From an uncultured Pseudomonadota bacterium (GTDB lineage Bacteria; Babelota; Babeliae; Babelales; RVW-14): a DNA stretch of 64,000 nt. Below, piece after piece: positions 14,504 to 41,623 of this stretch. The notes under the pieces were generated by a model, which had not been told where the DNA came from, searched no databases, and worked only from the letters and a program-made list of their open reading frames with translations. How positions within the stretch are numbered: position 1 is the stretch's first letter; every line of letters begins with the position of its first letter. Position numbers and translations under genes: made by a program. Where the stretch lies: the NCBI GenBank assembly GCA_964388745.1, contig CAYMBP010000004.1, positions 7,430 through 71,429 of the forward strand, written 5' to 3'.

Positions 14504-15868
14504 TTACAATTTTTTCTTCAAGGCTGTCAGTTGGTCTTTTAATTTTTCAAGATTGGTTTTAAGCCCATTGAGTTTTTGACTAAGTGATTTTATATTATTT
14601 TCGAGCGCCTCTTGTCGTACAGTAATGTGCTGTGGAGTAAGAGGCGCTGCCATTTGTGCTGCTTTTTTGCTTGGTGGCAGCAGTGTTGCTCGTTTGTATA
14701 AAAGAATATAAGGGGTCCCTATTTCTTTTTCTTGTGCAGCAATGGCTTTAATTTCAGATTTCCCTGAGTATTCAGTAACGAAATCATCGTTAAATTTGCG
14801 CCATACTTCGTCGGGTCCTTGTCCGTAGGCCCAGTAGTGTCCACCCGTAAGATCTCCTTTGTGGCAGATGATAGCGGAGAGATTGTAGGGGATATATTCT
14901 TCGGATTGAAGGTAGTGGCCAAGGTTAATTATTAAAGGAAAATTAACAGGAGTATTGTTTTTTATTAATGTGGATCCAGTTATTTGAAAACGTTTTAAGC
15001 TGATAATAACATAATCTGAAATGCTGGAGAGGTAGGCCTTTCTTGAGAGTCGGTTCTTACTAGCAACAAGGGGATAGTATACTTTTTCTGGTTGTCCTTT
15101 ATTTTTTTTCTTCAAATTTAATGCTTTAAGTTCTTGTTTGAATTGTTCTATATGATCTTTGTAAACATAGTATTTCTCTTTCTCCTGATGATCGCAAATG
15201 CCAACATCAATTTTACCTAAAGATGTAATGTCAATAAACATTGTTGAAAAATAGGCTTTTAAAAGTGCCTCTAAGTTTTTTTCTATTTTATCAGGAATTT
15301 CTAGGGTAAGTATTGAACTGGACTCAGTTTTAAAACTTGATGTTCCGCAGTTTCCACATATTGTTTCAAATGTTTCTTCAAAGAATAGTATTTCTTTAAT
15401 TTGATTATTGTATTGAGTGAGGTAATCAATAAATTTATTTAAAAATTCATGGGCATCTTCTTGTCTGCCTTCAAAAAAAAGAGGTTTCTTTTCCCAATCA
15501 ACTAGCAATTTAAGCGCAAGAGCCTGCAGTTTTTTCACCTGATTATCTCGTACATCCTTTCTTGCTGATGATTTTACTAAGGGGTCTTCTAGGTGTTTAA
15601 TTCTGAGGTGATTATTAACAAGGTTTACATAGGTTTCAATGAGTTGGTCTGTAATTTGTTGACTGAGCTCTTCAGTCAGGTGTTCAATATTTGATAAGAG
15701 TTGTATTGAAGAGTTAAAATAGCAGCTATTACCGCAATTGAGCATGCCGTATTGTCGAGGAGATTTATCCCCAGCACCTCTTAATGACCAGAAACCTACG
15801 ATAAGAAAGCCTAAAAATTTACTCAGTTTCTTGAATTTTTGGCATTTCACAATCTGGACATTTGCCAT
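14504..15868 (-). CDS. USP/UBP-type (peptidase C19-like) deubiquitinase-like cysteine protease with C-terminal coiled coil
   Basis: Cys box GMLNCGNSCYFNSSIQLL. His box YNLSAIICHKGDLTGGHYWAY followed by FNDDFV. Own AAGGA Shine-Dalgarno lies inside the upstream gene. N-terminal hydrophobic FLGFLIVGFW. Confidence 0.8.
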   Translation of the reverse strand: MANVQIVKCQKFKKLSKFLGFLIVGFWSLRGAGDKSPRQYGMLNCGNSCYFNSSIQLLSNIEHLTEELSQQITDQLIETYVNLVNNHLRIKHLEDPLVKSSARKDVRDNQVKKLQALALKLLVDWEKKPLFFEGRQEDAHEFLNKFIDYLTQYNNQIKEILFFEETFETICGNCGTSSFKTESSSILTLEIPDKIEKNLEALLKAYFSTMFIDITSLGKIDVGICDHQEKEKYYVYKDHIEQFKQELKALNLKKKNKGQPEKVYYPLVASKNRLSRKAYLSSISDYVIISLKRFQITGSTLIKNNTPVNFPLIINLGHYLQSEEYIPYNLSAIICHKGDLTGGHYWAYGQGPDEVWRKFNDDFVTEYSGKSEIKAIAAQEKEIGTPYILLYKRATLLPPSKKAAQMAAPLTPQHITVRQEALENNIKSLSQKLNGLKTNLEKLKDQLTALKKKL

Positions 15869-16913
15869 ATCTCATTCCTTGATAATAATAATGCTTGCCA
15901 CTCTTTTTGAATAAACATGTTTTATGTACAACATGGCCACACCGATAAGTTCTTTTGTTAAAATAAGATCGTCGAGGAATGCTTTTGGTACATATTGCGC
16001 ATATATTTGATTGTTGCTCCTTATAGTCTTTGATTGTATCAAGAGTAACATGGTACACTAAGTTTTCAGAGATAGGGGCTTTTCCATCAGGCTGGTGTAA
16101 AATGTTTTTGATAATTGTATGAAGCAGTTTTTCTCGTTCTTGAGGAGGAATTCCTTGCTCTCTAATCTCTTCTTGAATGGCGATGCGAGCTGATTCAATT
16201 GACTCAAAAAAGAATTCACTTTTCTTTATTTTATTTCTTGAGCGCTTTGAGCGTGAAAGGCGCTTTTTTTCTCTAAGAGCTTCTTGTTCTGTTTTGTGAG
16301 CAAACTCATGAATGCTTTGGTCTGTTGCTGGATCTATGTTTTTAAGCCGATTAATAGCGTTATTAATGATAATTTTAATATTTCGAGAGCTGAGGGCTGG
16401 ATGGCCTGAAGTAAGCATTCGTTGATGAGCAAAAATATCTTCTTTAATTGATTTGTACAAGCTTCTTTTATAGGTGCGGATGAGTTCTGGTGATTCAATC
16501 TTCATATTGTCCATAATATATTGAGTAAGTGCAAATGATATTGCTTGACGAGCATATGGTACAAGAAACATCTCTTTTGGAGCACCTTTTTGATAATTGT
16601 GTGGAAAAGTAAGAAAAAGGTATTGCTTAAGCTGTTTTTTGATTTTTTTTACTTTTTTAGGAGTAAGTCGAGGTCCATAGTGTAAGAGCATCAGGCCAGT
16701 TTTATGAAGAAGGGCTTGTTGTGTAGTAGTTTCAATCTCTATATTAAATTCTTTGATAATAGTATTGGTATAAATTTTTATTTGTTTGAATGCATCTTGA
16801 AGACTTACCCTATTGTATAACCATGGATTTAAGTTACTCTGTACAGGCCAAAGAACCATCGGTGTATCAAGAATAATGAATGCTATAAGAATCAAGCATA
16901 TTTTTTTTATCAT
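15819..16913 (-). CDS. RING-H2 finger protein (E3 ubiquitin ligase-like) with N-terminal signal/TM segment
   Basis: The C-terminus reads C-x2-C-x16-C-x1-H-x2-H-x2-C-x18-C-x2-C (CAIC...CGHVVHKTC...CPDC), the canonical C3H2C3 RING spacing. GGAG Shine-Dalgarno 8 nt upstream. The 3' end overlaps the USP-like gene by 50 nt. Confidence 0.75.
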   Translation of the reverse strand: MIKKICLILIAFIILDTPMVLWPVQSNLNPWLYNRVSLQDAFKQIKIYTNTIIKEFNIEIETTTQQALLHKTGLMLLHYGPRLTPKKVKKIKKQLKQYLFLTFPHNYQKGAPKEMFLVPYARQAISFALTQYIMDNMKIESPELIRTYKRSLYKSIKEDIFAHQRMLTSGHPALSSRNIKIIINNAINRLKNIDPATDQSIHEFAHKTEQEALREKKRLSRSKRSRNKIKKSEFFFESIESARIAIQEEIREQGIPPQEREKLLHTIIKNILHQPDGKAPISENLVYHVTLDTIKDYKEQQSNICAICTKSIPRRSYFNKRTYRCGHVVHKTCLFKKSGKHYYYQGMRYGKCPDCEMPKIQETE

Positions 16914-18585: not shown

Positions 18586-19404
18586 CTATTGTTCATTTTT
18601 TTGCTGTTTTAAGTACTTATTTTTTATTTTTTTCATGGCAGGAACAAGGTGCTCTTTAATATATTGTTTTGCATGTGCAAGTGTAATGGTTTTTTGGGTA
18701 TCAAGATTTTTAAGGGCCTGAACTATATCTTTTTTATATAGGCCTTGATAGGGAGTCTGCTCCTTACCTATAACAAGAGCTTTTTTTAAGTCATTAACTG
18801 AATAGCTTGCGGTATTTGGAGCATCTTCTTTACTTATTTTAAAAGTCTCTTTTGCAATATTGAGAGGGGTGATGCGGATAGATTGCATGATCTTTTTTTT
18901 TTGTGTACGTAATGCCGCAAGTTTTTTTGCATCTAATTTGTTAATTTTTTCAATTTCATTTAGATTATTTTGATGATTTTTTTCAAGTTCTGTTTTTATT
19001 TTATCTGTAAGTTTGTTATATGCTTTTATATTGTTTCCAAGGATAGTTTTGCGATAGATGTTTCTCATTTTAGATAAAGTAAAAAGAGGCTCTTCATTAT
19101 TTTGAGGTGAAAAAACAATTATTTTTTCATTATTATTAAAGTTTTTAGGAAAAAGCTCTGAGCGTTGTTGTTGAAGGTCTTTGATGGATACGGTATTTTT
19201 TCTTTTTTTAGTATTTTTTCTTTTTTTTGCTTTTTTCTTTTTTTTTCTATTTAACTTCTTTTTTGCTTTTTCAAGTGTTGTTTCTTCTTCATTATTAATG
19301 TAATCATCAATCCCATCAGCTTGAAGTTGAGTTAGGGGTAAGGCCGTTTGTGTGCAAGTGAAAAGTATAAAAGCAATTAGATAGTGCTTGAATTGTTTAT
19401 TCAT
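18586..19404 (-). CDS. hypothetical secreted Lys-rich protein with NLS-like basic tract
   Basis: 272 aa. Signal-like YLIAFILFTCTQTALPL, then KKKLNRKKKKKAKKRKNTKKRKNT. The coding strand contains A10, A9 and A8 homopolymers. Confidence 0.5.
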   Translation of the reverse strand: MNKQFKHYLIAFILFTCTQTALPLTQLQADGIDDYINNEEETTLEKAKKKLNRKKKKKAKKRKNTKKRKNTVSIKDLQQQRSELFPKNFNNNEKIIVFSPQNNEEPLFTLSKMRNIYRKTILGNNIKAYNKLTDKIKTELEKNHQNNLNEIEKINKLDAKKLAALRTQKKKIMQSIRITPLNIAKETFKISKEDAPNTASYSVNDLKKALVIGKEQTPYQGLYKKDIVQALKNLDTQKTITLAHAKQYIKEHLVPAMKKIKNKYLKQQKNEQ

Positions 19405-19549: not shown

Positions 19550-20410
19550 TTATCGATGGCACTTTTTGAGCTTATTGCTACATTTTTTCCATTTTTTTTT
19601 GTGGTATTTTTTCCATGGAAAAAGAGTATACATAACTTTTTTGAGTTTTGTTTTTTCTTTGCATAGATTTTTTAACGTCTCATCATCTTTATATTTTTTC
19701 TTTATTGCATATGCTTGTTGCTTAAGATGCAGGTAAATATATTTTTTTCCACTTTTAAGATTGAGGTCACTTTCACTCTGGTCTAGGTGCTGAGCTATTT
19801 TAAGTTTTAATGCTTTTTCTTTAGCATTAGAGTTTAATTTTAATGGTGTATTCCACATGCCGCTTTTAAGCTGCTTCCAAACTTCATCAAAGGTATAAGC
19901 TTGATAGGCCTTAAAATTAAAATTTTTGAACGAAAGTTCTGTTGATAGTAGCTCATCTTTTATTTGATTTTTTTCTTGAAGAAGTTTTTTAAGAGCTTTA
20001 CCATCTTCCCTGTTGTAACTAGTGATGATGCTTAGCATAGAATCTTTGAGTCTATTTTTTTTATTTTTCCACTCTTGATAATAGTAGTCACTGGTGAGAC
20101 CAAGTTGGTTTACTCGAGCATTCCATAATGCTTCCCAAAGAACCGTTGCAGTTGGAGGAATTTGAGTATTATCAAATTTTATACTAATTTTTTTTGCATT
20201 ATTCCATTCTGGATTATCCTTGTAGTTGCAGTAACCATTTTTACTATTTTTTTTGTAATAGCAACGCTTTTTGCGGTTGTATCTGGAGGACTTATTCTTT
20301 TTTTTATGATGATGCCTCTGACCTTCGCTAGAGTGTTTACATAAAATTTTTTCAGGATTACTCATAAAAAAAGTTACAAGAAGGAGCAACTGTGATATTT
20401 TTTTATTCAT
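19550..20410 (-). CDS. hypothetical secreted Lys/basic-rich protein
   Basis: 286 aa. Signal-like ISQLLLLVTFFMS. Basic tracts HHHKKKNKSSRYNRKKR and the C-terminal KKYHKKKWKKCSNKLKKCHR. Confidence 0.5.
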   Translation of the reverse strand: MNKKISQLLLLVTFFMSNPEKILCKHSSEGQRHHHKKKNKSSRYNRKKRCYYKKNSKNGYCNYKDNPEWNNAKKISIKFDNTQIPPTATVLWEALWNARVNQLGLTSDYYYQEWKNKKNRLKDSMLSIITSYNREDGKALKKLLQEKNQIKDELLSTELSFKNFNFKAYQAYTFDEVWKQLKSGMWNTPLKLNSNAKEKALKLKIAQHLDQSESDLNLKSGKKYIYLHLKQQAYAIKKKYKDDETLKNLCKEKTKLKKVMYTLFPWKKYHKKKWKKCSNKLKKCHR

Positions 20411-20841: not shown

Positions 20842-22083
20842 TTAGCTTGCAGTTGCTTCAGGAATAATAAGACCTGAAACTTTTTTTAAGAGCTTGCTGA
20901 CTTGGCTCCTTTTTTGAGACCACTCGGTTGGCATGTTATTGGCAAGTGTATTAAGTTGGACTTGTAATTTTTGTTTAATTTGAGCAAGTTCTTGATTATC
21001 TTTAGCAGTAGGATCTTTAAGATTATTGAGAGCTCTCTCTAGGCTATTTGATGAGGATTCTATATTTTTAACAAGGCGAGATTCTTCTTGTTCAAAGAGG
21101 GATTTAAGCTTTTTATTTTCAATAAGATGTATTCCGTCATTTATAAGCATTGTCATTACTCGAGTGGCTGTAGGCTGATTTGGAGCTAGTGAAAAACGCA
21201 CAAGGTAAGGGGTTGCTTTATTAAGCTGAGCAATAAGATTTTTGTTTTCTGCTGAAAAATATTTTTTTTCAGCTTCGGGAAGCTCGTTAAGTTGTCGCAC
21301 ATAGCTGGATAAGCCTGAGGCAAGGCTTTCAAATTTATTTTGACTTGGCCGTTGAAGTTCTTCATATGCCGTCAGTAAATCTTTTTCAGGAGATGAGCTT
21401 TTTGTCTTGGTACTGATAATAGCGATAATGGTTGATAGGTCGTGATTAAGCTTTTTTACTATTTGTTGCAGTTGGTTTTCTTTTATCTCTTTTTCATCAT
21501 TACTTTTACTCTTTTTATTCTTATTTTTTGAGGTATAGCCTGGTGATGAAGGAGTGGTATTTGTTTTTTTTGTTTGAGGGGTTTGAATATTTTTGTTTTT
21601 TGATTGAGATGATTGTTGAAGTGGTTGTTTATTGAAAGCAGAGGAGTGTTCCTGATAAGGGCTTCGGCCAAAACCTCGATTAGATGAAGAAGGGCGTCCA
21701 CCACCAAAGGGTGAGTAACTTCCATAGCTGCTACGACCATGTCCGTATGAAGAGCCATATCCGCGTCCATATGAAGGCCTTCGTCCACTGCTGCGATTTC
21801 CAACAGAAGCACCTCTACTTTTGAGTCCTCCAGCCCCTACACGTTTTTGTTTTTGAGCTGCACTATCTTCTTGTTGCTTGATTCGTTTTTTTTCCGCCTC
21901 TATCGCTTGTATTGTGATTTTATCATTGCGAAGAGCGCTAAGTCGGCTAGTAATTGAATTGAGAGGTTGTAGTGCTCGCTCTGTCTCTTGTTCATAGGCA
22001 CTTACTAAAGGCTTTTGTGGTTGAGGTGATAATGTATAAACTATCGTATTTGTCATAAGAGCGATAATAAAAAGTAATGACAT
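20842..22083 (-). CDS. hypothetical secreted protein with RGG/SYG low-complexity region
   Basis: 413 aa. N-terminal MSLLFIIALMTNTIVYTLS. Central GRRPSYGRGYGSSYGHGRSSYGSYSPFGGGRPSSSNRGFGRSPY, followed by a Q/S/K/N/T-rich tract and a helical C-terminal half. Confidence 0.55.
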   Translation of the reverse strand: MSLLFIIALMTNTIVYTLSPQPQKPLVSAYEQETERALQPLNSITSRLSALRNDKITIQAIEAEKKRIKQQEDSAAQKQKRVGAGGLKSRGASVGNRSSGRRPSYGRGYGSSYGHGRSSYGSYSPFGGGRPSSSNRGFGRSPYQEHSSAFNKQPLQQSSQSKNKNIQTPQTKKTNTTPSSPGYTSKNKNKKSKSNDEKEIKENQLQQIVKKLNHDLSTIIAIISTKTKSSSPEKDLLTAYEELQRPSQNKFESLASGLSSYVRQLNELPEAEKKYFSAENKNLIAQLNKATPYLVRFSLAPNQPTATRVMTMLINDGIHLIENKKLKSLFEQEESRLVKNIESSSNSLERALNNLKDPTAKDNQELAQIKQKLQVQLNTLANNMPTEWSQKRSQVSKLLKKVSGLIIPEATAS

Positions 22084-22098
22084 ACAATATTCCTTTTT

Positions 22099-22932
22099 CT
22101 AGTATCCGCGGGGTGACCGATCGATTTTTTTCTGACGAATAGATGTGCGTCGTTCGATTGTACTCATTTGATCAAGTTTGGGGAGTGGAACTTTTATTTT
22201 TTTGAGTTGTTTATATGAGTCTTTGATATCTTGCTGTTTTATTGATGGTATTTTTTGTACCACTTTGCTTAGACTTTCAAACAATCCATAGATATCTTTT
22301 CTTAAAGAGACTCTCTCTTTATCTGATGAAAAAAAGGTTGTAAGATAGGCATTATGACTTGAAATTAACTCATATTCACTCTCAAATGTGTCGATATGCT
22401 GTTTGTAGCTTTGTTCAAATCGATCTTTAAAGCTCTGTGAAAAGACATCTCCTATAATAGCTGATTCGATAGTTCGCAGGTGCTCAACAAGATTACCCAT
22501 GTGGTAATGATATGCATGTTTTTTTAAGGAGGGTATTTCCTCTAATGTTTGCTTTGAATTTGAGCCTGTTTCTTTATTTGAAAGAGAATCAAGAAAGTTT
22601 GACTTTAGGTCATTTTTTTGAATTTTTACAGTCTGTTGAGGTAAAACAGTTTGAGGGATTTCATTGTTAGGAGGTGACCAGGTTGGTTCAGGAGAAGGGC
22701 TTTGCTGCTCTTTACGAAGCTCTTGCTCAAGTTCATTTTCTAATTCTTTAACAAATTCTCCAAAATCAAAATTTTCTCCAAACAGAGAGCCAAATGAAAA
22801 GGGGTCTTCGTTACCTTTAATCAAAGACTGTGTAAGAAGCATAGTTGTAATCAGTGCACAAAAAGAGATAATAATATTTTTATTACGGCGTAAAAGAGAG
22901 TTCATAGTGACTCCTCTTGTTTTTCCCCCCAA
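22099..22932 (-). CDS. hypothetical secreted protein
   Basis: 277-aa ORF. The likely start is at the internal MNSLLRRNKNIIISFCALITTMLL (nt 22905). It is followed 15 nt later by the next gene, so co-transcription is likely. Confidence 0.5.
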   Translation of the reverse strand: MGGKTRGVTMNSLLRRNKNIIISFCALITTMLLTQSLIKGNEDPFSFGSLFGENFDFGEFVKELENELEQELRKEQQSPSPEPTWSPPNNEIPQTVLPQQTVKIQKNDLKSNFLDSLSNKETGSNSKQTLEEIPSLKKHAYHYHMGNLVEHLRTIESAIIGDVFSQSFKDRFEQSYKQHIDTFESEYELISSHNAYLTTFFSSDKERVSLRKDIYGLFESLSKVVQKIPSIKQQDIKDSYKQLKKIKVPLPKLDQMSTIERRTSIRQKKIDRSPRGY

Positions 22933-23029: not shown

Positions 23030-23254
23030 ATGGCAAGGATTGTTTTTATGGTATCACATAATAAGTATCAAAACAAAAGGGGGTGGATTTTGTATGAACT
23101 TGCAGTGAGCATAGCAATTTTATCTTTTATGACAATAAGTATTATTTCTATGATAGGTTGTATAGAGATGCTATTTCAACAACAAAAGATGATTATTCAT
23201 AGAACGGAGCTTACGCATGAAAAGCAAAAAAAGGAAGGGGTCAAGCCTTATTGA
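23030..23254 (+). CDS. prepilin-type N-terminal domain protein (minor pseudopilin-like)
   Basis: KRG/WILYELAVSIAIL: Gly at -1, Glu at +5 and a hydrophobic helix, which is the class III (prepilin peptidase) signal pattern. Confidence 0.55.
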   Translation: MARIVFMVSHNKYQNKRGWILYELAVSIAILSFMTISIISMIGCIEMLFQQQKMIIHRTELTHEKQKKEGVKPY

Positions 23255-23714
23255 GTTATTTGTTGGTCTAGCAGGAGCTGTCAGCCTTTCGTTAATGCTT
23301 TGTCATTTGATTGTTTTTATTATGCAATATATCAAAGTTTCTCATCAAAAGGATAGTGAGCTTGATGCGCTTCTTGTTATTGATAGTCTCAAACGAGACC
23401 TGATAAGTGCTGTTCCCGCTCTTTCGATTAGCCAGCAAGGAGTATTCTGTTTACATGTTCTTGATTCAAAAAAAAGACCTATTGAAAAATTTATTAAGTG
23501 GGGGTGCAATGAATCAGGTCTTTTTCGCAAAGAGGGGAATTTCGATAGAAAAAAAGACTCTTTTTATGCCAACTCAACAATTATGATGCGTTGTCCTATT
23601 ACTTCATTGAGTATCAGTTTTAGTGATGGGAAAAGGGCACTTTGTTCTATTAATTATACAATTAGAGGTAATCAATATCAGACGAACACTTATATACTTA
23701 ATAAAATTTTTTAA
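23217..23714 (+). CDS. prepilin-type N-terminal domain protein (minor pseudopilin-like)
   Basis: KKRKG/SSLIELFVGLAGAV: Gly at -1, Glu at +5. Overlaps the previous ORF by 38 nt. Confidence 0.55.
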   Translation: MKSKKRKGSSLIELFVGLAGAVSLSLMLCHLIVFIMQYIKVSHQKDSELDALLVIDSLKRDLISAVPALSISQQGVFCLHVLDSKKRPIEKFIKWGCNESGLFRKEGNFDRKKDSFYANSTIMMRCPITSLSISFSDGKRALCSINYTIRGNQYQTNTYILNKIF

Positions 23715-23726
23715 AAGAGAGCAGCT

Positions 23727-24158
23727 ATGATTCAACGTGATGGTTTTTGCGTAGTGCTTGTTTTGCTTTCAATAACAATAATGATGGTGTTGTTAATGCA
23801 TGTTTGGGCACGACAATCATTGTCCATGTTGCTTTTACAGCATAGAGAATGTTTTTATGAAAAAAGGGACCTTCTTGCTAATGCGCTTTCTGTTGCCTGT
23901 AGACAATTAAAAAATAGGCAAGATCATGATGATCCTGGTCAGATTTCATTTATTACCAGTGATAAGGCACAAGTAAACGGAAGGAATTTTCAAGTGACAA
24001 CGTTGTTAAAGCTTGATGAAAAAAAGAAAGATCTTTATCTACTTAATATTGAATGCAAGGATAACGCTGGTAAAGAATTATCCTTGTCTGGCTTTTTATT
24101 ACGAAGGGCTGATCATGTTATTGCTGATTACATTACTCTCAGGCCTGGCATACGGTAG
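23727..24158 (+). CDS. pseudopilin-like protein lacking Glu+5 (GspK-like pattern)
   Basis: MIQRDG/FCVVLVLLSITIMMVLL: Gly then a hydrophobic helix with no Glu at +5. Third gene in the same run. Confidence 0.4.
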   Translation: MIQRDGFCVVLVLLSITIMMVLLMHVWARQSLSMLLLQHRECFYEKRDLLANALSVACRQLKNRQDHDDPGQISFITSDKAQVNGRNFQVTTLLKLDEKKKDLYLLNIECKDNAGKELSLSGFLLRRADHVIADYITLRPGIR

Positions 24159-25386
24159 CGCATTTGTTTTTCCCTATCTTCTTGGGTGGCTTGTTTTGCC
24201 ATCATTAACAGCAGTATGCCTTGTTTTATACTTTTGTATTTGTTCATCAGAGTCATTATTCAAAATTAGCTTACTTGGCCTTGCTTGGGGTTGGGCCGCT
24301 TATGCTGTTTCACACTATTGGACTTTTTTTGTTGTGATTGATAATAGTACGGTTACCACTCCTTATGCCTTTGGATTAACCATAATAATGGCATTTGTTA
24401 TGTCGCTTAGCGTTGTACTTTGGTGGTTTATTACTGGACTTCTTGCAAGGCTTTCTTCGTCACATTTTTTTTATGGTATTCTTATTTTGGTAACATCTTA
24501 CGGATACTTTTTATTAATGAATCAAAAGGGCGGAATTATTATGGGACAAGATTGTGGCTATCCACTCTTTTCACCCGCAGTGCCCTTGTCTGCCTATCCT
24601 TTATTTCTTAGTTGTGTTAGGCATCTGAGTTCTGCTACAGCTCCAGGGCATTACATGAGCAATAAACAACATAAATTGAATATTGAATTTAAACATCTTA
24701 AGCCTGTTATTAATAAGCGAACGGAGCAGAAACTTAAACATCTTCAATCAAAGCAGGGGTGTGGGCAAGGGATATACCTTGTTTTGCAAGAATTAACTAA
24801 AACAATAGATCCCAATAAAAAGACAATTATTGTCTCGCCTGAAAGTTCTTTTCCTCATTGCCTGAATGAAGCTCATGATCACCACGAATTGTGGTCAAAC
24901 GGATTTCCGTCAAATGCACACTTACTTATTGGATCCCAACATCGCAGCAATAAAAAAGGAAAAAGGACTCAAGCAATTTATCATATGACAAACGGTCGCA
25001 TAACTGATTTTTATGTAAAAAAACATTTAATGCCTTTTGGAGAAACTCCTCCACCTTGGTTTATCGCACAATTTTTACAAGAAAAATGGTTTGGACAGAC
25101 AGAATGGATGGAGCGTAATGATTGCCAAGGAGTTCATACTTTTTCTGTTGAAGGAATAACAATAATTCCTCAGGTATGTTCAGAATTTTTGGCTTGCAAT
25201 AGCCGCGCACATTTTTTTCCTTGGCGGATTAGGCAATCTGAAAATCCAACGTTTATTTTATTTTTTGTTAATGATAGCTGGTTTAGAGATTCTTTCAATG
25301 ATATTTTAAAATTATATGCGGCTCTTCGCCAAGCATGGATTGGCATTCCTGTTATTTATATTGGACATGATGATCTTATTCAATAA
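24115..25386 (+). CDS. lnt: apolipoprotein N-acyltransferase
   Basis: Multi-TM N-terminal half plus a CN-hydrolase half with the E-K-C triad contexts IIVSPESSFP, KKHLMPFGE and QVCSEF. The start is placed at the ATG at 24115 (MLLLITLLSGLAYG); the track ORF starts at 24013. Confidence 0.7.
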   Translation: MLLLITLLSGLAYGSAFVFPYLLGWLVLPSLTAVCLVLYFCICSSESLFKISLLGLAWGWAAYAVSHYWTFFVVIDNSTVTTPYAFGLTIIMAFVMSLSVVLWWFITGLLARLSSSHFFYGILILVTSYGYFLLMNQKGGIIMGQDCGYPLFSPAVPLSAYPLFLSCVRHLSSATAPGHYMSNKQHKLNIEFKHLKPVINKRTEQKLKHLQSKQGCGQGIYLVLQELTKTIDPNKKTIIVSPESSFPHCLNEAHDHHELWSNGFPSNAHLLIGSQHRSNKKGKRTQAIYHMTNGRITDFYVKKHLMPFGETPPPWFIAQFLQEKWFGQTEWMERNDCQGVHTFSVEGITIIPQVCSEFLACNSRAHFFPWRIRQSENPTFILFFVNDSWFRDSFNDILKLYAALRQAWIGIPVIYIGHDDLIQ

Positions 25387-25406: not shown

Positions 25407-26633
25407 GTGAGTATGAAAATATTTTTACTATTTATATCATTAATTGGATTAATGCATAATCTTGCTTATACAATGAAAATAAAAAAAAGAATTCGCTGGG
25501 CTGATGAAATAGGCTATTATGAAGGAGATAATGTGGATTGTCCTCGTGATATAGAGGAGGTCATAACCAAGAATGAAAGGGCTCTAAATTCTTTAATCAA
25601 AAGTTATTTAAGAATTCGATTGATGTTACCAAGCATATGCTCTCTATTGCCTGATGATTATACAAAAAGCATTATAGGTAAAATTTTATATAATGACGAG
25701 CACAATGAAGAAAGCTTAGCTTATTGTAAAAAAGAGTGGCATTTAATGTATCAAAGAGCAGAAGGAGCTTTAATGTTCAATATGCTTACCAACCTTCAAG
25801 AGAAATATCAATTGACTGAGGAACTTAATCTCCAATTAAAAGATATTTACGGACAATTATCTTTGCTTAAAGAAAGTGTTGAATACACATGCAAAGCATT
25901 ATATGGTGATATGCCTTTTTATGAGGAAATTTATGAAGAAATTTATGAAGAGCATTCATTACTTAAGGCATATATAAGGGAAGTAAAATATCTTGTGTCA
26001 ACATATAAAGAAGATCCATGGAGTTATCTTAATAAAACAGATAAGGGTGCACAATTGGCATGTCATTATGCTCAGTATAAAAATAAAATAACAGGAGAAG
26101 GAATATCTAGTGGAGTATTTATTGGAAAAAAACTTTTTCCAATAACCGCTTCTGTGATTGCTGATATTCATGTTAAACATATTTTTGACGTACTTTTTGC
26201 CCCTTTTGAAGTAGAGTATTATGAAGGGCTAAGTGGATGCGGATATCGTAGTAAGTGGAAGTTTGATGAAAAATTTATAGAAAAACTTGAAATCATTGAA
26301 ATGTCAATTGATGATTTTACAAGTTATGCTCTTTTTTTTAAACAAATTTATTATATACTCCATGCAAGAAAAGACTCTTGTGAGCAATCGGAAAGGTTGC
26401 TATTATCATTTGATGCATTTTGGAAAAAAGTTTGTGATCTAGCGAATAATGTCGATTTTAGGCATTACAAGGAGCATTTTTCAGCTATAATAACATTCAA
26501 AAAAAAGATGCTCGAAGAAAAAAAGCTTATAGATGCTATTTTAGAAAAAGAAGAGCAAATTTATAGCAATATAAGGCCTGAAGAAAATTTTATAAAGGCT
26601 GTTTGGAGAGATGTTAAAGCCCTTGTTTTCTGA
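25407..26633 (+). CDS. hypothetical secreted protein
   Basis: 408 aa. The signal-like MKIFLLFISLIGLMHNLAYT starts at the ATG at 25413. Contains an EEIYEEIYEE tandem. No family motif recognised. Confidence 0.5.
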   Translation: MSMKIFLLFISLIGLMHNLAYTMKIKKRIRWADEIGYYEGDNVDCPRDIEEVITKNERALNSLIKSYLRIRLMLPSICSLLPDDYTKSIIGKILYNDEHNEESLAYCKKEWHLMYQRAEGALMFNMLTNLQEKYQLTEELNLQLKDIYGQLSLLKESVEYTCKALYGDMPFYEEIYEEIYEEHSLLKAYIREVKYLVSTYKEDPWSYLNKTDKGAQLACHYAQYKNKITGEGISSGVFIGKKLFPITASVIADIHVKHIFDVLFAPFEVEYYEGLSGCGYRSKWKFDEKFIEKLEIIEMSIDDFTSYALFFKQIYYILHARKDSCEQSERLLLSFDAFWKKVCDLANNVDFRHYKEHFSAIITFKKKMLEEKKLIDAILEKEEQIYSNIRPEENFIKAVWRDVKALVF

Positions 26634-29758: not shown

Positions 29759-30391
29759 TTATATCCAATAAATAACATTACCCAGCCTATCTCCTGTAGC
29801 AAAGCCTCTTCCATTAGGTGAAAATACAATTTTGGTAATATTTGTATGGTGGCCTTCAAGTATTTGATAATAATTTTCATTATCAAATACACCAATGAGT
29901 CCACTCTCAAATCCAACAATGAGTTGATTATTATTGGGGGAAAAAGCCATTGTACTTACTTTAGAGCCTTCTGGTATATCTATTTTCTTTCTGATTGTTA
30001 TATTGTTTTCAGTAATTAAAATATTATTTTTATATACAAAGGCACAAACTCCATTATTAATTATATTATCAATAAGACGAGGCTTTTTGTGTTGAGGGGG
30101 ATTACATGCACAAATCCATTTTCCACTGATTAAACAAAAAGTTTCCATTTCTATAGAATTAGTAACACGTATTTTTTGTGATTCAAGGAAAAATTCTATA
30201 TCAATAACAGGATCTTGATCAACTGTTGTGTGAGATGACTTAAATGTCGTACAATGTCGATATAATACGCTTTGCTCTTGTTTTCCTGAAGAGCTACACT
30301 TTATAGAGTCTAATAACTGATTTTTCATTGAATGAAGCAACAAAGCTGGCATAAAAGAAATAATAAGAAATAATAATAATTTCATTATCAA
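29759..30391 (-). CDS. secreted WD40-repeat-like mini-protein
   Basis: 210 aa. Signal-like MKLLLFLIISFMPALLLHS. The C-terminus KVSTMAFSPNNNQLIVGFESGLIGVFD...LEGHHTNITKIVFSPNGRGFATGDRLGNVIYW matches the WD40 GH...FSPdG...D..i..W pattern. Confidence 0.6.
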   Translation of the reverse strand: MIMKLLLFLIISFMPALLLHSMKNQLLDSIKCSSSGKQEQSVLYRHCTTFKSSHTTVDQDPVIDIEFFLESQKIRVTNSIEMETFCLISGKWICACNPPQHKKPRLIDNIINNGVCAFVYKNNILITENNITIRKKIDIPEGSKVSTMAFSPNNNQLIVGFESGLIGVFDNENYYQILEGHHTNITKIVFSPNGRGFATGDRLGNVIYWI

Positions 30392-36553: not shown

Positions 36554-38251
36554 ATGAATCTCTATGTCAAAAGCATAATTCAGTTCTTTTTATCTTTTAC
36601 AATGTTCGCTCATAGCCTTCTTCAAGCAAATAATCTATCTGTTCAGGTAGTGCAAAAATCTCAAAAAAAGAACCAGATCCCTTATCAAGCAAAGCTTTTT
36701 TTACTGTCTCAAGGGCTTGAAAGAGACGAAGATATAAGACAGATAGAGACAATTGATAAATATGCACCATTACCAATTTCTTCTTATCTTAAAAATGCTT
36801 CATTTGAAGGAAAGTATGAGCAAATAGCTCAAGTTCCCCTTGTCGTCAATGGGGAGATTATTAACCACATCTTTATTGGTTTAGGAAAGCCTGCAAAAAA
36901 TATAGATGACTCTTGTGAATATCTTAGGCGATCCATAGCCTCGGTTATGCCTCTTGTTAAAAATCTTAAAATAGCCCATCTACTGGTAGAAATTCCACGA
37001 TATCTTGAAGAAATTTGTAAGCGGACTTATGAGGAGTTAGTTCGAGAGTGCAGCTTAGCAACTCTCATGCATGATTATAGTTATGACGAATTTAGACAAT
37101 CAAAAAAAAATGATAACGATTTTCATCCAATTATTACATTTCTTATACCAGAGAATAAAGAGATGGAGTTTGTTGAAAAAGCATGCAAAGAAGCTAGTAT
37201 TATTGCAAGCTCATTAAATGAAGCTCGATGTTGGATGGATGGTCCAGCCAACAAGGTGACACCTACCTTCATGGCAGAGCAAGCAAAAAAAATTGCAGCA
37301 AGAAATGAGAATCTTGTTTGCCATATTCTTGAAGAATCTGATGCAAAAAATCTTGGGATGGGGGCTTTTCTTGCTGTAAGTAAAGGATCATCACAATCTG
37401 GAAAAATTGTTATTCTTGAATACAAAAGTGACAGCCCACATGCTCAAACAATTGCCCTATGTGGTAAAGGAATTACGTATGACACAGGAGGGGTTTCACT
37501 TAAAACTCCTGGAGCTATGCTTGGCATGAAGTATGACATGTGTGGTGGTGCGTCTGTTTTAGCGATTATGAATCTTGTTGCTCAATTTAAGCCACATTGC
37601 AATGTTATTGGCATTGTCCCATTTGCTGAAAATATGCCAGATGGCAATGCGTATCGTGAAGATGATATTTTAACAGCCATGAACGGCAAAACAATTGAAG
37701 TAATCACAACGGACGCAGAAGGTAGGCTTGTTTTAGCAGATGCTTTATGTTATGCAGAAAAGGTATATCATCCGGATATTATAATTGATATTGCTACACT
37801 AACAGGAGCTTGCCCTAATGCTGTTGGTCGTTTTTATACAGCCTTCATGACAAAAGACTCTGACCTCATGCAATTACTTCAATTCTATGGGTATAAAACA
37901 GGGGACCGCATGTGGCCACTTCCATTTCATGATGATTATAAAAAAGCTAATAAATCTGATATTGCCGATGTAAAGAATAAGGGATCTTATCAATATCAGG
38001 CTTATTGCATTGAGGCTGGAAAATTTCTTGAAAACTTTGTTGAAAATGCTCGGTGGGCACATCTTGATATTGCAGGATCTGGATGGAGTGCCCCTGGTAT
38101 TAATTATTTAGGTAATGGAGCAACTGGGGCGGGCATAAGAACTATTTTATATGTTATTATGAATTACAGCGCTCAAGCTCGCTTATATAAAGAAATCAAT
38201 GAATTTCATTACTCACAGGCAAAGGAGAAAGAAGCTGCTCTTGCGGCTTAA
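36554..38251 (+). CDS. pepA: M17 leucyl aminopeptidase with N-terminal signal-like segment, paralog 1
   Basis: 565 aa with GKGITYDTGGVSLK and TTDAEGRLVLADAL (variant of the NTDAEGRL signature). N-terminal IIQFFLSFTMFAHSLLQA. Confidence 0.9.
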   Translation: MNLYVKSIIQFFLSFTMFAHSLLQANNLSVQVVQKSQKKNQIPYQAKLFLLSQGLERDEDIRQIETIDKYAPLPISSYLKNASFEGKYEQIAQVPLVVNGEIINHIFIGLGKPAKNIDDSCEYLRRSIASVMPLVKNLKIAHLLVEIPRYLEEICKRTYEELVRECSLATLMHDYSYDEFRQSKKNDNDFHPIITFLIPENKEMEFVEKACKEASIIASSLNEARCWMDGPANKVTPTFMAEQAKKIAARNENLVCHILEESDAKNLGMGAFLAVSKGSSQSGKIVILEYKSDSPHAQTIALCGKGITYDTGGVSLKTPGAMLGMKYDMCGGASVLAIMNLVAQFKPHCNVIGIVPFAENMPDGNAYREDDILTAMNGKTIEVITTDAEGRLVLADALCYAEKVYHPDIIIDIATLTGACPNAVGRFYTAFMTKDSDLMQLLQFYGYKTGDRMWPLPFHDDYKKANKSDIADVKNKGSYQYQAYCIEAGKFLENFVENARWAHLDIAGSGWSAPGINYLGNGATGAGIRTILYVIMNYSAQARLYKEINEFHYSQAKEKEAALAA

Positions 38252-38327: not shown

Positions 38328-39971
38328 ATGAACAAGCATTTTTGCTTAATAGTTTTTCTATTTCTTTTTCCTGGAGTAATACCTTTTAGCAATGGCAAGG
38401 CTGCACCATTTAATGAAAATCATCTCTTCTTGGAAGTTAAAGAGTGTCAACAGCTCCCAGTTACTCACCATATTTCCTATGAAGCAAAGCTATTTTTAAT
38501 GAGTGAAGGATTTAAATATGCAGATGATGCTCAAACGATTGAAGAAATTAATGCATATTCTTCAACCCCGATAGAAGAATATTTTAAAATAAAGAACTTT
38601 GAAGGAAAATATGAGCAGGTAATCGAAATTCCTTTAAATGTTGATGGTAAGTTGATTGATCATATTTTTGTTGGGCTTGGAAAACCAAACACCTATCCTG
38701 ATACAGCATGTGAGTATTTTCGTCGATCATTTTCATCAGTTATTCCTCTTATGAAAAAAAACAAAATAATAGACCTTGCAACTTGTTTGCCAAAATTCTT
38801 AGAAAAATGGTGTAACCGATCATATGCAGATCTTATTTATGAAGCGGGCCTTGCAGCACTTCTCCACTATTATGATTATGATGACTATAAAAGCGAAAAA
38901 AATAGGCATAATGCTTCTATCACATTTTGTCTTTCTGAAGAAGATTTTGAGTATCAAAGAGAGGCTGAGCAATCTTCTATAATTGCAACAACAGTTGCGC
39001 ATTCAATGAACGCAGCAAGGAATTGGATGGATGGTCCAGCAAATTTAGTTACACCTTTATTTATGGCACAACAAGCTGAAATGATTGCGAAAAAACATGA
39101 TAACTTAACATATCGGGTTCTGAATGAAGAAAGTGCTACAAAGCTTGGAATGGGAGCTTTTATGGGTGTATCACAGGGCTCTTCAAATCCTGGCAATATT
39201 GTCATTCTTGAATATTATTGTGATGATGATGCACCAACAATTGGGTTATGTGGTAAAGGAATTACATATGATACTGGTGGCGTTTCACTCAAACCACCGA
39301 GTGCTATGCTTGGCATGAAATATGACATGTGCGGTGGCGCATCTGTTTTGGCTATTATGGACCTTGTTGCCCAGTTTAAACCACATTGTAATGTTATTGG
39401 CATAGCCCCATTTGCTGAAAATATGCCAGACGGTAAATCTTACCGAGAAGATGATATTTTAACAGCTATGAACGGAAAAACAATCGAAATTATTAACACA
39501 GATGCTGAAGGCCGATTAGCTCTAGCCGATGCATTATGCTACCTTGAACAAGAATATAGACCTGACGTAATTTTTACTATTGCAACACTAACAGGAGCAT
39601 GCTTACATGCAGTTGGTCATGAATACACAGCCTTTATGACTCAAGACACAGAGCTCTTGCAACTTCTACAACGATATGGAAATAGAACAGGAGATAAAAT
39701 GTGGCCACTGCCATTTCATGATGACTATATGAAAGCCAATCACTCAAGCGTTGCTGATGTTGCTAATGCTGGTTCAAAAAAATATCAAGCTGGCAGCATT
39801 GTTGCTGGAAAATTTCTTCAAAATTTTATTGAAAATGCACGCTGGGCACATCTTGATATAGCCGGTGCTGCATGGGGCTCAACTGATATAAATTACGTAG
39901 GACAAGGAGCAACAGGAGCGAGTATCAGAACGCTTATTCATGTAATTATGGATTTCAGTCAATATAATTAG
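38328..39971 (+). CDS. pepA: M17 leucyl aminopeptidase with N-terminal signal-like segment, paralog 2
   Basis: 547 aa with GKGITYDTGGVSLK and NTDAEGRLALADAL (exact M17 signature). N-terminal FCLIVFLFLFPGVIPFSNG. Collinear with paralog 1 over its whole length. Confidence 0.9.
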   Translation: MNKHFCLIVFLFLFPGVIPFSNGKAAPFNENHLFLEVKECQQLPVTHHISYEAKLFLMSEGFKYADDAQTIEEINAYSSTPIEEYFKIKNFEGKYEQVIEIPLNVDGKLIDHIFVGLGKPNTYPDTACEYFRRSFSSVIPLMKKNKIIDLATCLPKFLEKWCNRSYADLIYEAGLAALLHYYDYDDYKSEKNRHNASITFCLSEEDFEYQREAEQSSIIATTVAHSMNAARNWMDGPANLVTPLFMAQQAEMIAKKHDNLTYRVLNEESATKLGMGAFMGVSQGSSNPGNIVILEYYCDDDAPTIGLCGKGITYDTGGVSLKPPSAMLGMKYDMCGGASVLAIMDLVAQFKPHCNVIGIAPFAENMPDGKSYREDDILTAMNGKTIEIINTDAEGRLALADALCYLEQEYRPDVIFTIATLTGACLHAVGHEYTAFMTQDTELLQLLQRYGNRTGDKMWPLPFHDDYMKANHSSVADVANAGSKKYQAGSIVAGKFLQNFIENARWAHLDIAGAAWGSTDINYVGQGATGASIRTLIHVIMDFSQYN

Positions 39972-40117: not shown

Positions 40118-41623
40118 TTAAAGGAAATCATCAGAACTCTGCGGAAAAAGCATGGTGCTCATCTGCTCAATGCGCAAGCGAATATCTCTAAAATTGGGAT
40201 TGCTATAATATTGTTCTGCAACATTTATTGCAATGATTAAGTTTTCTTGAGCTTGTGGAATATTGCCTCGATCAAGACTCTCTTGTGTAGCAGCTAGCTC
40301 ATTAATAACAATTGCCATCTGAAAAGAAACAAGAGGGCTCTCTATAAAAAGCATTTGGGTAATACCCTGAATTAGATGAAAATACCTTTCATAAGAATTA
40401 TTAAGTGAGTCAATAAATATAATGTTTTGTTCTCTTTTTTGTGCAATAAGAGAGACCCAGTGACCTGGAGTATTTGCAATAACACAGATCTGACTTGAAG
40501 CTTCGTCACGAAACTGTTGCATGCCTTGAGCATCTTCATCACTGAAGGCAAAAGCTGCTGATCGCTCAAAGGCATCCTGTTCAAGAATATAAATGTTGGC
40601 AAGTTTATTATCTGAACGAAATTGAAGAGCATTCTCATTAACACCAAGTACTTTTAAGTAAGGACGTACTTGCTCTATATTTTCACGTGACATTAATCTT
40701 TCAATTTCATCCCTTACTAAATGGTCAAAGGTTCCATTTGAACGATGTTGTTGTATATTGTTTTTCCATATATTAATAACTTCAGAAAAAGCTTCTGGGT
40801 GTTGGGCGGTGTTCTTTATCAACTCTCCAGAGGGGTCCGCTTGAATAAGAATACCATTTATTAAGGCAAAGTAACCACAATCTAGTCCTGACTGTGGTTG
40901 ACTGAAAATTTGTTGAACATTAAGCGCGATATTGTTCTCAAGATCATTTTTACTATTTATATTAATTACACCACAAGCAGCTACTCTACCTGTTCGAGAT
41001 GATGTCATATAACAATATCCTTTGTATGCAAAATAAGTTCCGATCCCTAAACCAATAACAGAGGGAACAATCGGAAACTCTATCATAAGCTCCTTGGGCC
41101 AATGCCATATATAATCAAAAAATGATTCCTTAAATCCCATATCTTTATAACAAAGAGGAAAGACTGTTGATTGCATAATTTCTATAAGGGTACGAAGGTA
41201 AATAATTGAAGGACTTGGTGAATAACTGTTAGATAACTCTTGAAGAATTTTTTTACATCTTTTTTCAAAAATTCTTATCTGGTGTGGTAGTGCTAGATGC
41301 TTCTTTTGATTTAATGAATAAAAAAGCTTGCCATATAAACGAATACCTTGATCTACATAAGGATTTTTTGATTTGCTAATGAGCAAATCCATTGAGTTAG
41401 TAAGCTCTAAACCTTGATCAAGTAGTGCTATATCTCTATTATAATCTTCATCTTCATATTCTTTTTTTAAATGTTTTTCCAAATAAATTGAAGCCCTGAG
41501 CTCAGAAAACATTTTTTTTAAAGAAAGGGTTGCAAGATCAAAAGTAGGTGTCGCACTTATAATTGTGACAGATAACAACGAAACAACAAACATTGTCACA
41601 AAAATTATTTTTATTGATTTCAT
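40118..41623 (-). CDS. secreted/membrane papain-fold cysteine protease-like protein, Josephin-like motif order
   Basis: 501 aa with an N-terminal signal-like segment and one internal TM. Has QSGLDCGYFALINGIL (Gln at -5, then Cys). About 139 residues later comes GHWVSLIAQKREQNIIFIDSLNN, comparable to the ataxin-3 Josephin motifs QEGSLCAQHCLNN and HWFTVRKLGKQWFNLNSL. Confidence 0.45.
   Translation of the reverse strand: MKSIKIIFVTMFVVSLLSVTIISATPTFDLATLSLKKMFSELRASIYLEKHLKKEYEDEDYNRDIALLDQGLELTNSMDLLISKSKNPYVDQGIRLYGKLFYSLNQKKHLALPHQIRIFEKRCKKILQELSNSYSPSPSIIYLRTLIEIMQSTVFPLCYKDMGFKESFFDYIWHWPKELMIEFPIVPSVIGLGIGTYFAYKGYCYMTSSRTGRVAACGVININSKNDLENNIALNVQQIFSQPQSGLDCGYFALINGILIQADPSGELIKNTAQHPEAFSEVINIWKNNIQQHRSNGTFDHLVRDEIERLMSRENIEQVRPYLKVLGVNENALQFRSDNKLANIYILEQDAFERSAAFAFSDEDAQGMQQFRDEASSQICVIANTPGHWVSLIAQKREQNIIFIDSLNNSYERYFHLIQGITQMLFIESPLVSFQMAIVINELAATQESLDRGNIPQAQENLIIAINVAEQYYSNPNFRDIRLRIEQMSTMLFPQSSDDFL

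Follow-up and report, generated by a model that had tools for sequence, protein, structure and literature searches.

We analyzed t413, a gene in a 64,000-nucleotide stretch of contig CAYMBP010000004.1 (assembly GCA_964388745.1), hereafter called the window, that encodes a protein with an Arg/Tyr/Gly/Ser-rich low-complexity region (LCR). Sequence comparison indicates that t413 is the window's member of a core protein family, not described before, whose sequences were recovered from Dependentiae (TM6) alone, and that the composition of its LCR is extreme and under selection. What the family conserves is neither RGG motifs nor Gly richness but a disordered stretch of small residues, free of acidic ones, in which aromatics are spaced out and accompanied by Arg. 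The predicted layout of the protein runs from an export signal through a conserved helix and the disordered segment to a Lys-rich tract of ordinary linker type and, at the C-terminus, an all-alpha domain. Our favored but tentative reading is that it may be an exported self-associating scaffold at the bacterium–host interface, more like secreted glycine-rich adhesive proteins than like FUS, to which an initial annotation of the window had likened it.

The LCR (residues 81–146) contains 17 Gly, 15 Ser, 10 Arg, 6 Tyr and 4 Pro among its 66 residues. Gly, Ser, Tyr and Arg together account for 48/66. The highest value among 14,856 background windows of 66 residues, taken from the other large open reading frames (ORFs) of the window, was 24; the dense Gly-Arg-Ser-Tyr composition described in the initial annotation is therefore real. 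Gly makes up 26% of the LCR, and there are eight aromatics. The LCR has 10 Arg and one Lys, whereas the remainder of the protein has 11 Arg and 41 Lys. Five [G/S]Y[G/S] triplets lie inside 20 residues of the LCR, and the tract after it (residues 147–205) is rich in Q/S/N/K/T, with 12 Lys, 10 Ser, 8 Asn, 7 Gln and 6 Thr; both features had been read correctly at the outset. The dense RGG region claimed along with them was not found: the window protein contains no RGG tripeptide and has instead one GGR and eight RG/GR dipeptides. In an RGG box, RGG is reportedly separated by 0–4 residues, a definition said to be that of Thandapani et al. in 2013. None of the Tri-RGG, Di-RGG, Tri-RG or Di-RG patterns occurs in the window protein.

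The chemistry of the LCR is conserved across the family, whose sequences are representatives of clusters formed at 50% identity. All 60 LCR-bearing members keep an Arg/aromatic/Gly-Ser-Pro disordered segment at the same position, at an overall identity of only 15–25%. Conservation in orthologues, on which the initial annotation had been staked beforehand, thus held. The segment is 40–100 residues long, with a median of 57. Across the 60 members, R/(R+K) is 0.84 inside the LCR versus 0.21 outside, acidic residues make up 2.3% versus 14.8% elsewhere, and aromatics make up 15.2% versus 5.4%. Aromatic spacing was more even than in composition-preserving shuffles in 50/50 members (mean z −1.6), and 18 adjacent aromatic pairs were observed compared with 72 expected. 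The strings YRP, RPS, GYRP and PSSY were enriched relative to composition-preserving shuffles. Meanwhile, Tri-RGG, Di-RGG and Tri-RG were found in 0/60 members and Di-RG in 4/60. The label of an RGG/FUS-like RNA-binding protein is not justified; RGG motifs, an RRM, a zinc finger and any other RNA-binding domain are all missing. At least three [G/S]Y[G/S] triplets are present in 24/60 members, or in 40/60 if Trp and Phe are allowed. The Gly content of the LCR ranges from 2 to 59% (median 25%); some lineages have Pro in place of Gly, and Trp or Phe in place of Tyr. The LCR is partly alignable among the closest orthologues.

Outside the LCR, the widely conserved parts are the helix before it, the domain of the partner protein n277 and a short C-terminal core motif. 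The helix is the best-conserved block of the family, with the consensus I.PIA..L.K...SKE....IE..KK.R...EK.A, and the rest of the C-terminal domain is alignable within sub-lineages only. The strongest argument that the chemistry of the LCR is selected comes from the contrast with the adjacent Lys-rich tract in the same protein, which has the look of a disordered region in an AT-rich genome when only disorder is required. The preference for Arg over Lys in an AT-rich, Lys-rich proteome and the evenly spaced aromatics argue that the composition was selected rather than produced by drift, as had been proposed initially.

The G+C content at the LCR shows a local peak of 0.475, compared with ~0.33 nearby. 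The initial annotation had taken this rise as an argument for selection; the peak is real, but it is not independent evidence. The G+C content of the LCR is 0.52, but that at third codon positions (GC3) is 0.258, compared with 0.239 in the remainder of the gene. As the rise is confined to codon positions 1 and 2, it restates the amino-acid composition. The similar GC3 also indicates that the LCR is native and was not recently imported. Recent horizontal transfer or a eukaryotic origin of the LCR was rejected, given this match in GC3 and an inheritance that is vertical and phylum-wide. Microsatellite expansion was likewise rejected as its origin, as no tandem repeat was found in the DNA under the LCR. 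The G+C-rich codons of the LCR also produce a shadow ORF of 109 residues in another frame (21483..21812, minus), which is almost certainly no gene.

This shadow ORF, together with slippage as a frequent source of low-complexity regions, could be taken to mean that the LCR is neutral, i.e., a product of drift or repeat expansion, or an artefact of a non-coding or misframed stretch. Family-wide conservation effectively refutes this explanation. The composition is kept in 60 distant members against the AT bias, the DNA has no tandem repeat, GC3 equals that of the remainder of the gene, and the ORF is preceded by a ribosome-binding site and encodes conserved domains, predicted with high confidence, on either side of the LCR.

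We recovered the family by two routes. The peptide quoted in the initial annotation is present exactly in the translation of the 413-residue ORF in the window ORF list, and protein P0001 of an NCBI-derived collection, a singleton there, is identical to t413. Used alone as the query, t413 matched only itself in a word-indexed search covering 5.8 billion proteins and had no match in the genome collection; a look-up of contigs by exact sequence was likewise empty. Its relatives were reached by synteny around dnaB and by a profile search of all representatives. For the latter, a family profile (alignment A2, built from the window proteins and a few database homologues) was scored against 1.84 billion cluster representatives and returned only 119 proteins at E ≤ 1e-3. 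These were of three types: the partner only (~260–330 residues), the LCR protein only (~370–500 residues) and a fused form (600–780 residues). t413 matched the profile at E = 2e-120, partly by construction as it is itself in the profile. Its nearest relatives, P0106, P0084 and P0120, share 22–29% identity with it, and it is alignable with all three. The word-indexed search with the n277 alignment matched only four proteins.

No family was found in Pfam or NCBIfam for t413 (none in Pfam at E ≤ 0.1) or n277, and none of the family members has a Pfam domain or an informative name. Sequence and profile searches of PDB gave nothing for n277 or for t413, including its folded parts; the only PDB match of the LCR family profile was the RG-rich disordered region of SERBP1 (E = 4e-4), which is compositional. 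No description of the family was found in literature searches. One fused member, P0002 from candidate division TM6 bacterium GW2011_GWF2_38_10, bears the NCBI name 'Vitellogenin-2', evidently a mis-annotation driven by low complexity.

The synteny sample consisted of 48 loci fetched around dnaB. In these, tblastn detected n277 homologues, each with a directly downstream t413 counterpart of the same layout; in some loci, n277 and the LCR protein form one fused ORF of 600–1,050 residues. In a composition scan of all 1,675 ORFs from the window and the loci, each Dependentiae locus had a single ORF rich in Arg, Gly, Ser, Tyr and Pro; it invariably lay on the minus strand, upstream of lnt, rplI and dnaB, and no such ORF was found elsewhere. 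A hidden Markov model of the n277 domain had matches in ~30 loci, either adjacent to the LCR protein gene or as part of a fusion with it. Of the Dependentiae loci that extend 6 kb or more upstream of dnaB, 25/25 have the family. Automatic criteria identified both genes in 24 of the 25, and the remaining locus, L032, has a fused copy with a more dilute LCR.

The structure of t413 was predicted using AlphaFold2 with a 39-sequence family alignment (Table 1). The model has a mean predicted local distance difference test (pLDDT) score of 77.6 and a predicted template modeling score of 0.56, with disorder at residues 86–181 (pLDDT <50). An earlier AlphaFold2 run on three sequences gave the same topology at lower confidence. 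The helical C-terminal half expected from the initial annotation is borne out by the model as a confidently predicted all-alpha domain. Its core motif in the window protein is KATPYLVRFSLAPNQP (family pattern hydrophobic-x-P-x-[LIV]...A..P). A search of both t413 models against PDB using Foldseek gave no fold match at E ≤ 1e-3. Several orthologues have the C-terminal alpha module, with the core motif F.P.L, duplicated two to three times in tandem, giving proteins of 580–730 residues (P0077, P0078, P0096, P0113, P0102 and L007:3544-5394).

The N-terminus of t413 reaches a hydropathy of 2.8 in a 10-residue Kyte–Doolittle window, and signal-like N-terminal segments were seen throughout the family, as judged by a hydropathy heuristic. 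The closest orthologues, P0106 and P0120, have canonical signal peptides (n-, h- and c-regions) with cleavage sites SSA and LNA. The initial annotation had called the protein secreted, for which the evidence is this hydrophobic N-terminus; in the window protein the putative signal is atypical, with no basic n-region.

Table 1. Positions of t413, its predicted parts and neighboring features in the window
Feature	Position	Strand	Remarks
t413, LCR protein gene	20842..22083	minus	ORF of 413 residues, ATG start
N-terminal hydrophobic export signal (putative)	21997..22083	minus	residues 1 to ~29; possible cleavage after VSA29; hydropathy heuristic
Helix before the LCR (predicted)	21832..21999	minus	residues 29–84; AlphaFold2 pLDDT 84–95
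Arg/Tyr/Gly/Ser LCR, putative sticker-and-spacer module	21646..21843	minus	residues 81–146; pLDDT <50
Second disordered tract	21529..21645	minus	residues 147–185; K/S/N/Q/T-rich, ordinary for an AT-rich genome
All-alpha C-terminal domain (predicted)	20875..21528	minus	residues 186–403; pLDDT 88–97
AAGGA ribosome-binding site	22091..22095	minus	7 nt upstream of the ATG at 22083, read from sequence
n277 partner gene	22099..22932	minus	277 residues from a TTG start; likelier start ATG at 22905
Three pilin-like genes	23030-23254, 23217-23714, 23727-24158 (span 23030..24158)	plus	divergent from n277
USP/UCH deubiquitinase, eukaryote-type	14504-15868	minus	Pfam PF00443, E = 2e-36
Weak C-terminal RING finger protein	15819-16913	minus	E ~2e-3
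WD40-repeat protein	29759-30391	minus	signal-like N-terminus; candidate effector
Weak Ulp1-like (C48) peptidase	40118-41623	minus	signal-like N-terminus; candidate effector

If t413 acts as a self-associating scaffold, the LCR protein would, after Sec export, probably exit the cell via the type II secretion system. This exit is suggested by the conserved divergent pilin-like neighbors and by type II secretion being the only secretion system reported in cultured Dependentiae, as in Babela massiliensis, where no other was detected (PMC4378268). The disordered segment would then provide multivalent stickers and spacers outside the cytoplasm. Arg–aromatic (cation–π) and aromatic–aromatic contacts may lead to self-association into a condensate, gel or adhesive coat, possibly with co-assembly of the acidic, Phe-rich N-terminus of n277, and the helical domains would supply a scaffold and added valence. 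The site of action may be the periplasm, the bacterial surface or the host cytoplasm. We infer self-association of the LCR protein from composition and patterning, its sole basis; the LCR shows the sequence features of a sticker-and-spacer segment, i.e., disorder, enriched and even aromatics, an Arg partner and few charged spacers.

Several points weigh against this scaffold. The LCR of the window protein is short, with 8 aromatics and 10 Arg in 66 residues, and its valence would be low unless the helical parts oligomerize. Even aromatic spacing is equally expected of elastomeric or structural repeat proteins, and LCRs in some lineages (L027, L031 and L032) are Gly-poor, Pro-rich or diluted. 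The spacing and composition statistics take related sequences as independent, and their p-values are not exact. Finally, the type II route is suggested only by the gene neighborhood and by a precedent in Klebsiella.

The partner gene n277 lies directly upstream of t413, and approximately half of the lineages fuse both. The existence of such fused forms links n277 and the LCR protein functionally. In the window, the TAG stop of n277 and the ATG of t413 are separated by a gap of 15 nt and are in the same reading frame (window 22084–22101). As t413 has its own AAGGA ribosome-binding site, it appears to be translated separately from n277. A pseudogenized fusion or readthrough of n277–t413 was rejected as the main reading, as t413 has both a ribosome-binding site and a signal sequence of its own, like other split lineages. 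Given the fusion in approximately half of the lineages, the in-frame closeness of the two genes may be a trace of gene fission or a coincidence.

The n277 protein consists of a signal peptide, an acidic, Phe-rich motif (FDFGEFVKELE), a Pro-rich linker and a helical domain. The corresponding family motif at the N-terminus, F.F.DF.K.LE, is likewise acidic and Phe-rich. A NDPEFQQMMNDPEFQKIV or PEEIEEIMKSPEFKQMM motif lies near the N-terminus of certain n277 orthologues (L001:5914-6882 (minus), residues 80–103; L024, L021, L029, P0052 and P0062). It matches the eukaryotic STI1/HOP DP domain below the Pfam threshold (23 vs 29.1 bits, best E = 7.7e-5, 24/55 positions), and this match was not used.

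A wider claim would be that all Dependentiae secrete, by the type II system, a two-component condensate scaffold made of the basic LCR protein and the acidic n277, which surrounds the bacterium within its eukaryotic host with an adhesive coat or a compartment like a gel. We consider this claim quite improbable. Such a scaffold could recruit host RNA–protein material or tether organelles, e.g., the mitochondrion wrapped by Chromulinavorax, and, if true, bacteria would have in it an equivalent of viral factories or animal bioadhesives.

The gene order around t413 is kept in 27/29 loci: the LCR protein gene lies downstream of n277 on one strand, and three pilin-like genes followed by lnt, rplI and dnaB lie divergently on the other. 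In 27/29 loci, the start of n277 is 35–130 nt from the first of the three small plus-strand genes, which encode ~110, ~180 and ~155 residues. The first two of these have motifs of the prepilin type, G|(F/W/S)xx(L/I)E, which read G|WILYE and G|SSLIE in the window, and orthologues of the pilin-like genes in other loci matched Pfam N_methyl PF07963 at or near the threshold. The pilin-like genes are conserved context of t413 and n277, not a proven part of the system. The divergent layout is compatible with a secretion substrate beside secretion genes, and it equally fits a structural link to a pilus-like apparatus or the envelope. The pairing of pseudopilins with the lipoprotein-maturation enzyme lnt (window 23030-25386, plus) is unusual, and this order is phylum-wide. 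An orphan of 408 residues with a signal (25407-26633, plus) is inserted between lnt and rplI; a positional counterpart or tblastn match was found in 0/48 loci.

This neighborhood also bears on the explanation that t413 is a non-assembling part of the envelope or secretion machinery, in which the LCR would provide flexible or elastic spacing or attach to anionic polymers of the envelope (lipopolysaccharide phosphates, peptidoglycan). The protein would then reside in the periplasm or outer membrane, e.g., with a type II/type IV pilus-like apparatus or as an envelope tether, and the LCR would resemble a TonB/LpoB-type linker or a resilin-like spring. We regard this as rather unlikely. The family is universal in the phylum and has a fixed position, divergent from the pilin-like genes and then lnt, which acts in lipoprotein maturation; this synteny and universality are at least as compatible with a role in the envelope or linked to secretion as with that of an effector. 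The order of helix, disordered spacer and helical domain, together with the tandem C-terminal modules of P0077, P0078 and P0096, suggests an elongated structural protein, and LCR strings of the GRPS..SYG kind presumably recall resilin repeats. In addition, the core genes of TM6 include those for components of type II secretion and possibly of the type IV pilus (PMC4776705). However, a passive spacer would not need Arg over Lys, the exclusion of acidic residues or even aromatics against the mutational bias of the genome, and the Lys-rich tract beside the LCR is already an ordinary linker. The protein lacks a lipobox and a transmembrane anchor, as well as any beta-barrel or known peptidoglycan-binding domain, and resembles no known component of secretion or pilus assembly in sequence or fold.

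With respect to the genome itself, the best DnaB matches (64–72% identity) were metagenome-assembled genomes that bear the label candidate division TM6, Dependentiae or Babeliales, and the window, as judged from such matches, is part of a Dependentiae (TM6) genome. Many metagenome genomes with third-party annotation (loci L001, L002, L005-L007, L009, L010 and others) are titled 'uncultured Pseudomonadota bacterium', and one (L036) 'Campylobacterota'; the DnaB of such loci is 59–72% identical to that of the window, and they carry the Dependentiae-specific family, so these taxonomic labels look wrong. The housekeeping genes of the window include those for IleRS, L9, DnaB, ThrRS, PGK, RuvC, ProRS, RecF, DnaN, Gmk, RNase Y and a SurA-like protein, and no tRNA genes were found in it. 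Two M17 leucyl-aminopeptidase paralogues lie in tandem (36554-38251 and 38328-39971, plus), each with a Pfam match of E ~1e-111.

Eukaryote-type genes are scattered through the window, namely those for the deubiquitinase and the RING-like, WD40 and Ulp1-like proteins (Table 1). A hydrophobic, signal-like start was observed in all of them, as well as in every gene of the minus-strand run from 22932 to 14504. The deubiquitinase and RING-like ORFs overlap by 50 nt, and homologues in the same order were present in locus L010 only. Just downstream of t413 lie two signal-bearing orphans (18586-19404 and 19550-20410, minus), whose homologues are absent from the fetched loci. One of them has a polybasic run, KKKLNRKKKKKAKKRKNTKKRKN, resembling a nuclear localization signal (NLS), and the other has a basic tract rich in His, Lys, Tyr and Cys. 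In Chromulinavorax destructans, a signal peptide is predicted in 44% of coding sequences, including 78% of ankyrin-repeat proteins (PMC6561590), and in Babela massiliensis the amoeba cytoplasm is the presumed destination of secreted ankyrin and Ulp1-like proteins that bear a signal (PMC4378268). This literature indicates that a signal peptide does not separate envelope from host-directed proteins in Dependentiae.

Placed among such genes, t413 might be a host-directed effector whose Arg/Tyr segment partitions into, binds RNA in or scaffolds host RNA–protein condensates (stress granules, the nucleolus or P-bodies). It heads the same-strand run of signal-bearing orphans that ends in the USP deubiquitinase and the RING-like protein, which makes effectors of the ubiquitin system its neighbors, its composition with five [G/S]Y[G/S] triplets is like that of the low-complexity domains of FUS/EWS/TAF15 (FET) proteins, and its C-terminal domain evolves fast, as host-interaction surfaces often do. 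Dependentiae proteins with signal peptides are presumed to reach the host cytoplasm (PMC4378268), and the RG-rich disordered region of SERBP1 was the sole PDB match of the family profile. Still, we find an effector role unlikely. RGG/RG motifs by standard definitions are missing in 56–60 of the 60 members, Pfam reveals no RNA-binding domain, and the SERBP1 match is driven by low complexity. An NLS-like pattern follows the LCR in just 22/60 members, and a conserved NLS is thus not supported. Moreover, t413 is a strictly syntenic core gene by envelope and secretion genes, whereas among the other loci L010 alone has its effector-like neighbors.

The Dependentiae, which live as obligate parasites of protists, form a widespread phylum, and to our knowledge a role is known for hardly any of the genes specific to it. 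The LCR family is among the very few phylum-specific Dependentiae proteins shown to be universal and syntenic, and it has a physically meaningful sequence signature. If t413 is indeed a self-associating scaffold, the family would be the first among conserved families of exported bacterial proteins to be organized around an Arg/aromatic sticker-and-spacer segment, and it would extend condensate and bioadhesive chemistry to the bacterium–host interface. It would also provide a handle on how Dependentiae attach to, coat themselves within, or reorganize their hosts. If it is an envelope spacer instead, it would be a new core envelope component of Dependentiae.

Finally, we compared the family with known systems. 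In Klebsiella, pulA, which encodes a type II substrate, is divergent from the pulC-O secretion genes. Similarly, t413 is a gene for a protein with a putative signal peptide that lies divergent from pseudopilin-type genes; however, only three minor pilin-like genes adjoin it rather than a full secretion operon, and t413 is no enzyme. Export, disorder and a richness in Gly, Tyr and Ser, as predicted for t413, also characterize plant cell-wall glycine-rich proteins and insect resilin, and we take the LCR strings GGGRPSSS and SYG to recall the resilin repeat GGRPSDSYGAPGGGN. Unlike structural glycine-rich proteins of the plant type, in which Gly is roughly 40–70% in (GGX)n-type repeats, the LCR has 26% Gly (family median 25%). 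It also lacks the regular tandem repeats of plant glycine-rich proteins and resilin, in both DNA and protein, and has no chitin-binding domain.

With FET proteins, t413 shares [G/S]Y[G/S] triplets in a Gly/Ser background, Arg and Tyr as likely interactors, predicted disorder and even aromatics. In contrast to them, it has no RGG boxes, Gln-rich SYGQ repeats, RRM, RanBP2-type zinc finger or PY-NLS, and it carries a putative export signal. Its LCR is three to four times shorter than that of FUS, and Gln is not enriched. The low-complexity domain of FUS has ~27 Tyr, compared with 8 aromatics in the window LCR, a far lower valence.

The nearest analogue in function, in place of an RNA-binding RGG domain, would be found in the saliva of the tick Ixodes scapularis, which contains a glycine-rich protein (tick-GRP77) with a signal peptide and a 77-residue Gly-rich disordered region, which phase-separates via periodic Arg and aromatics and then ages into an adhesive gel (PMC11794139). 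Like it, t413 has an N-terminal signal, putative in its case, and a Gly-rich disordered segment of similar length, with ~9–15% aromatics and Arg as the main cation. The two are not homologous; the tick protein consists of the disordered segment only, whereas t413 is bacterial, its LCR lies between a conserved helix and an all-alpha domain, and it has a partner. Proteins of this kind are familiar from the condensates of eukaryotes and the bioadhesives of animals, and the Dependentiae family would add a new bacterial form to them.

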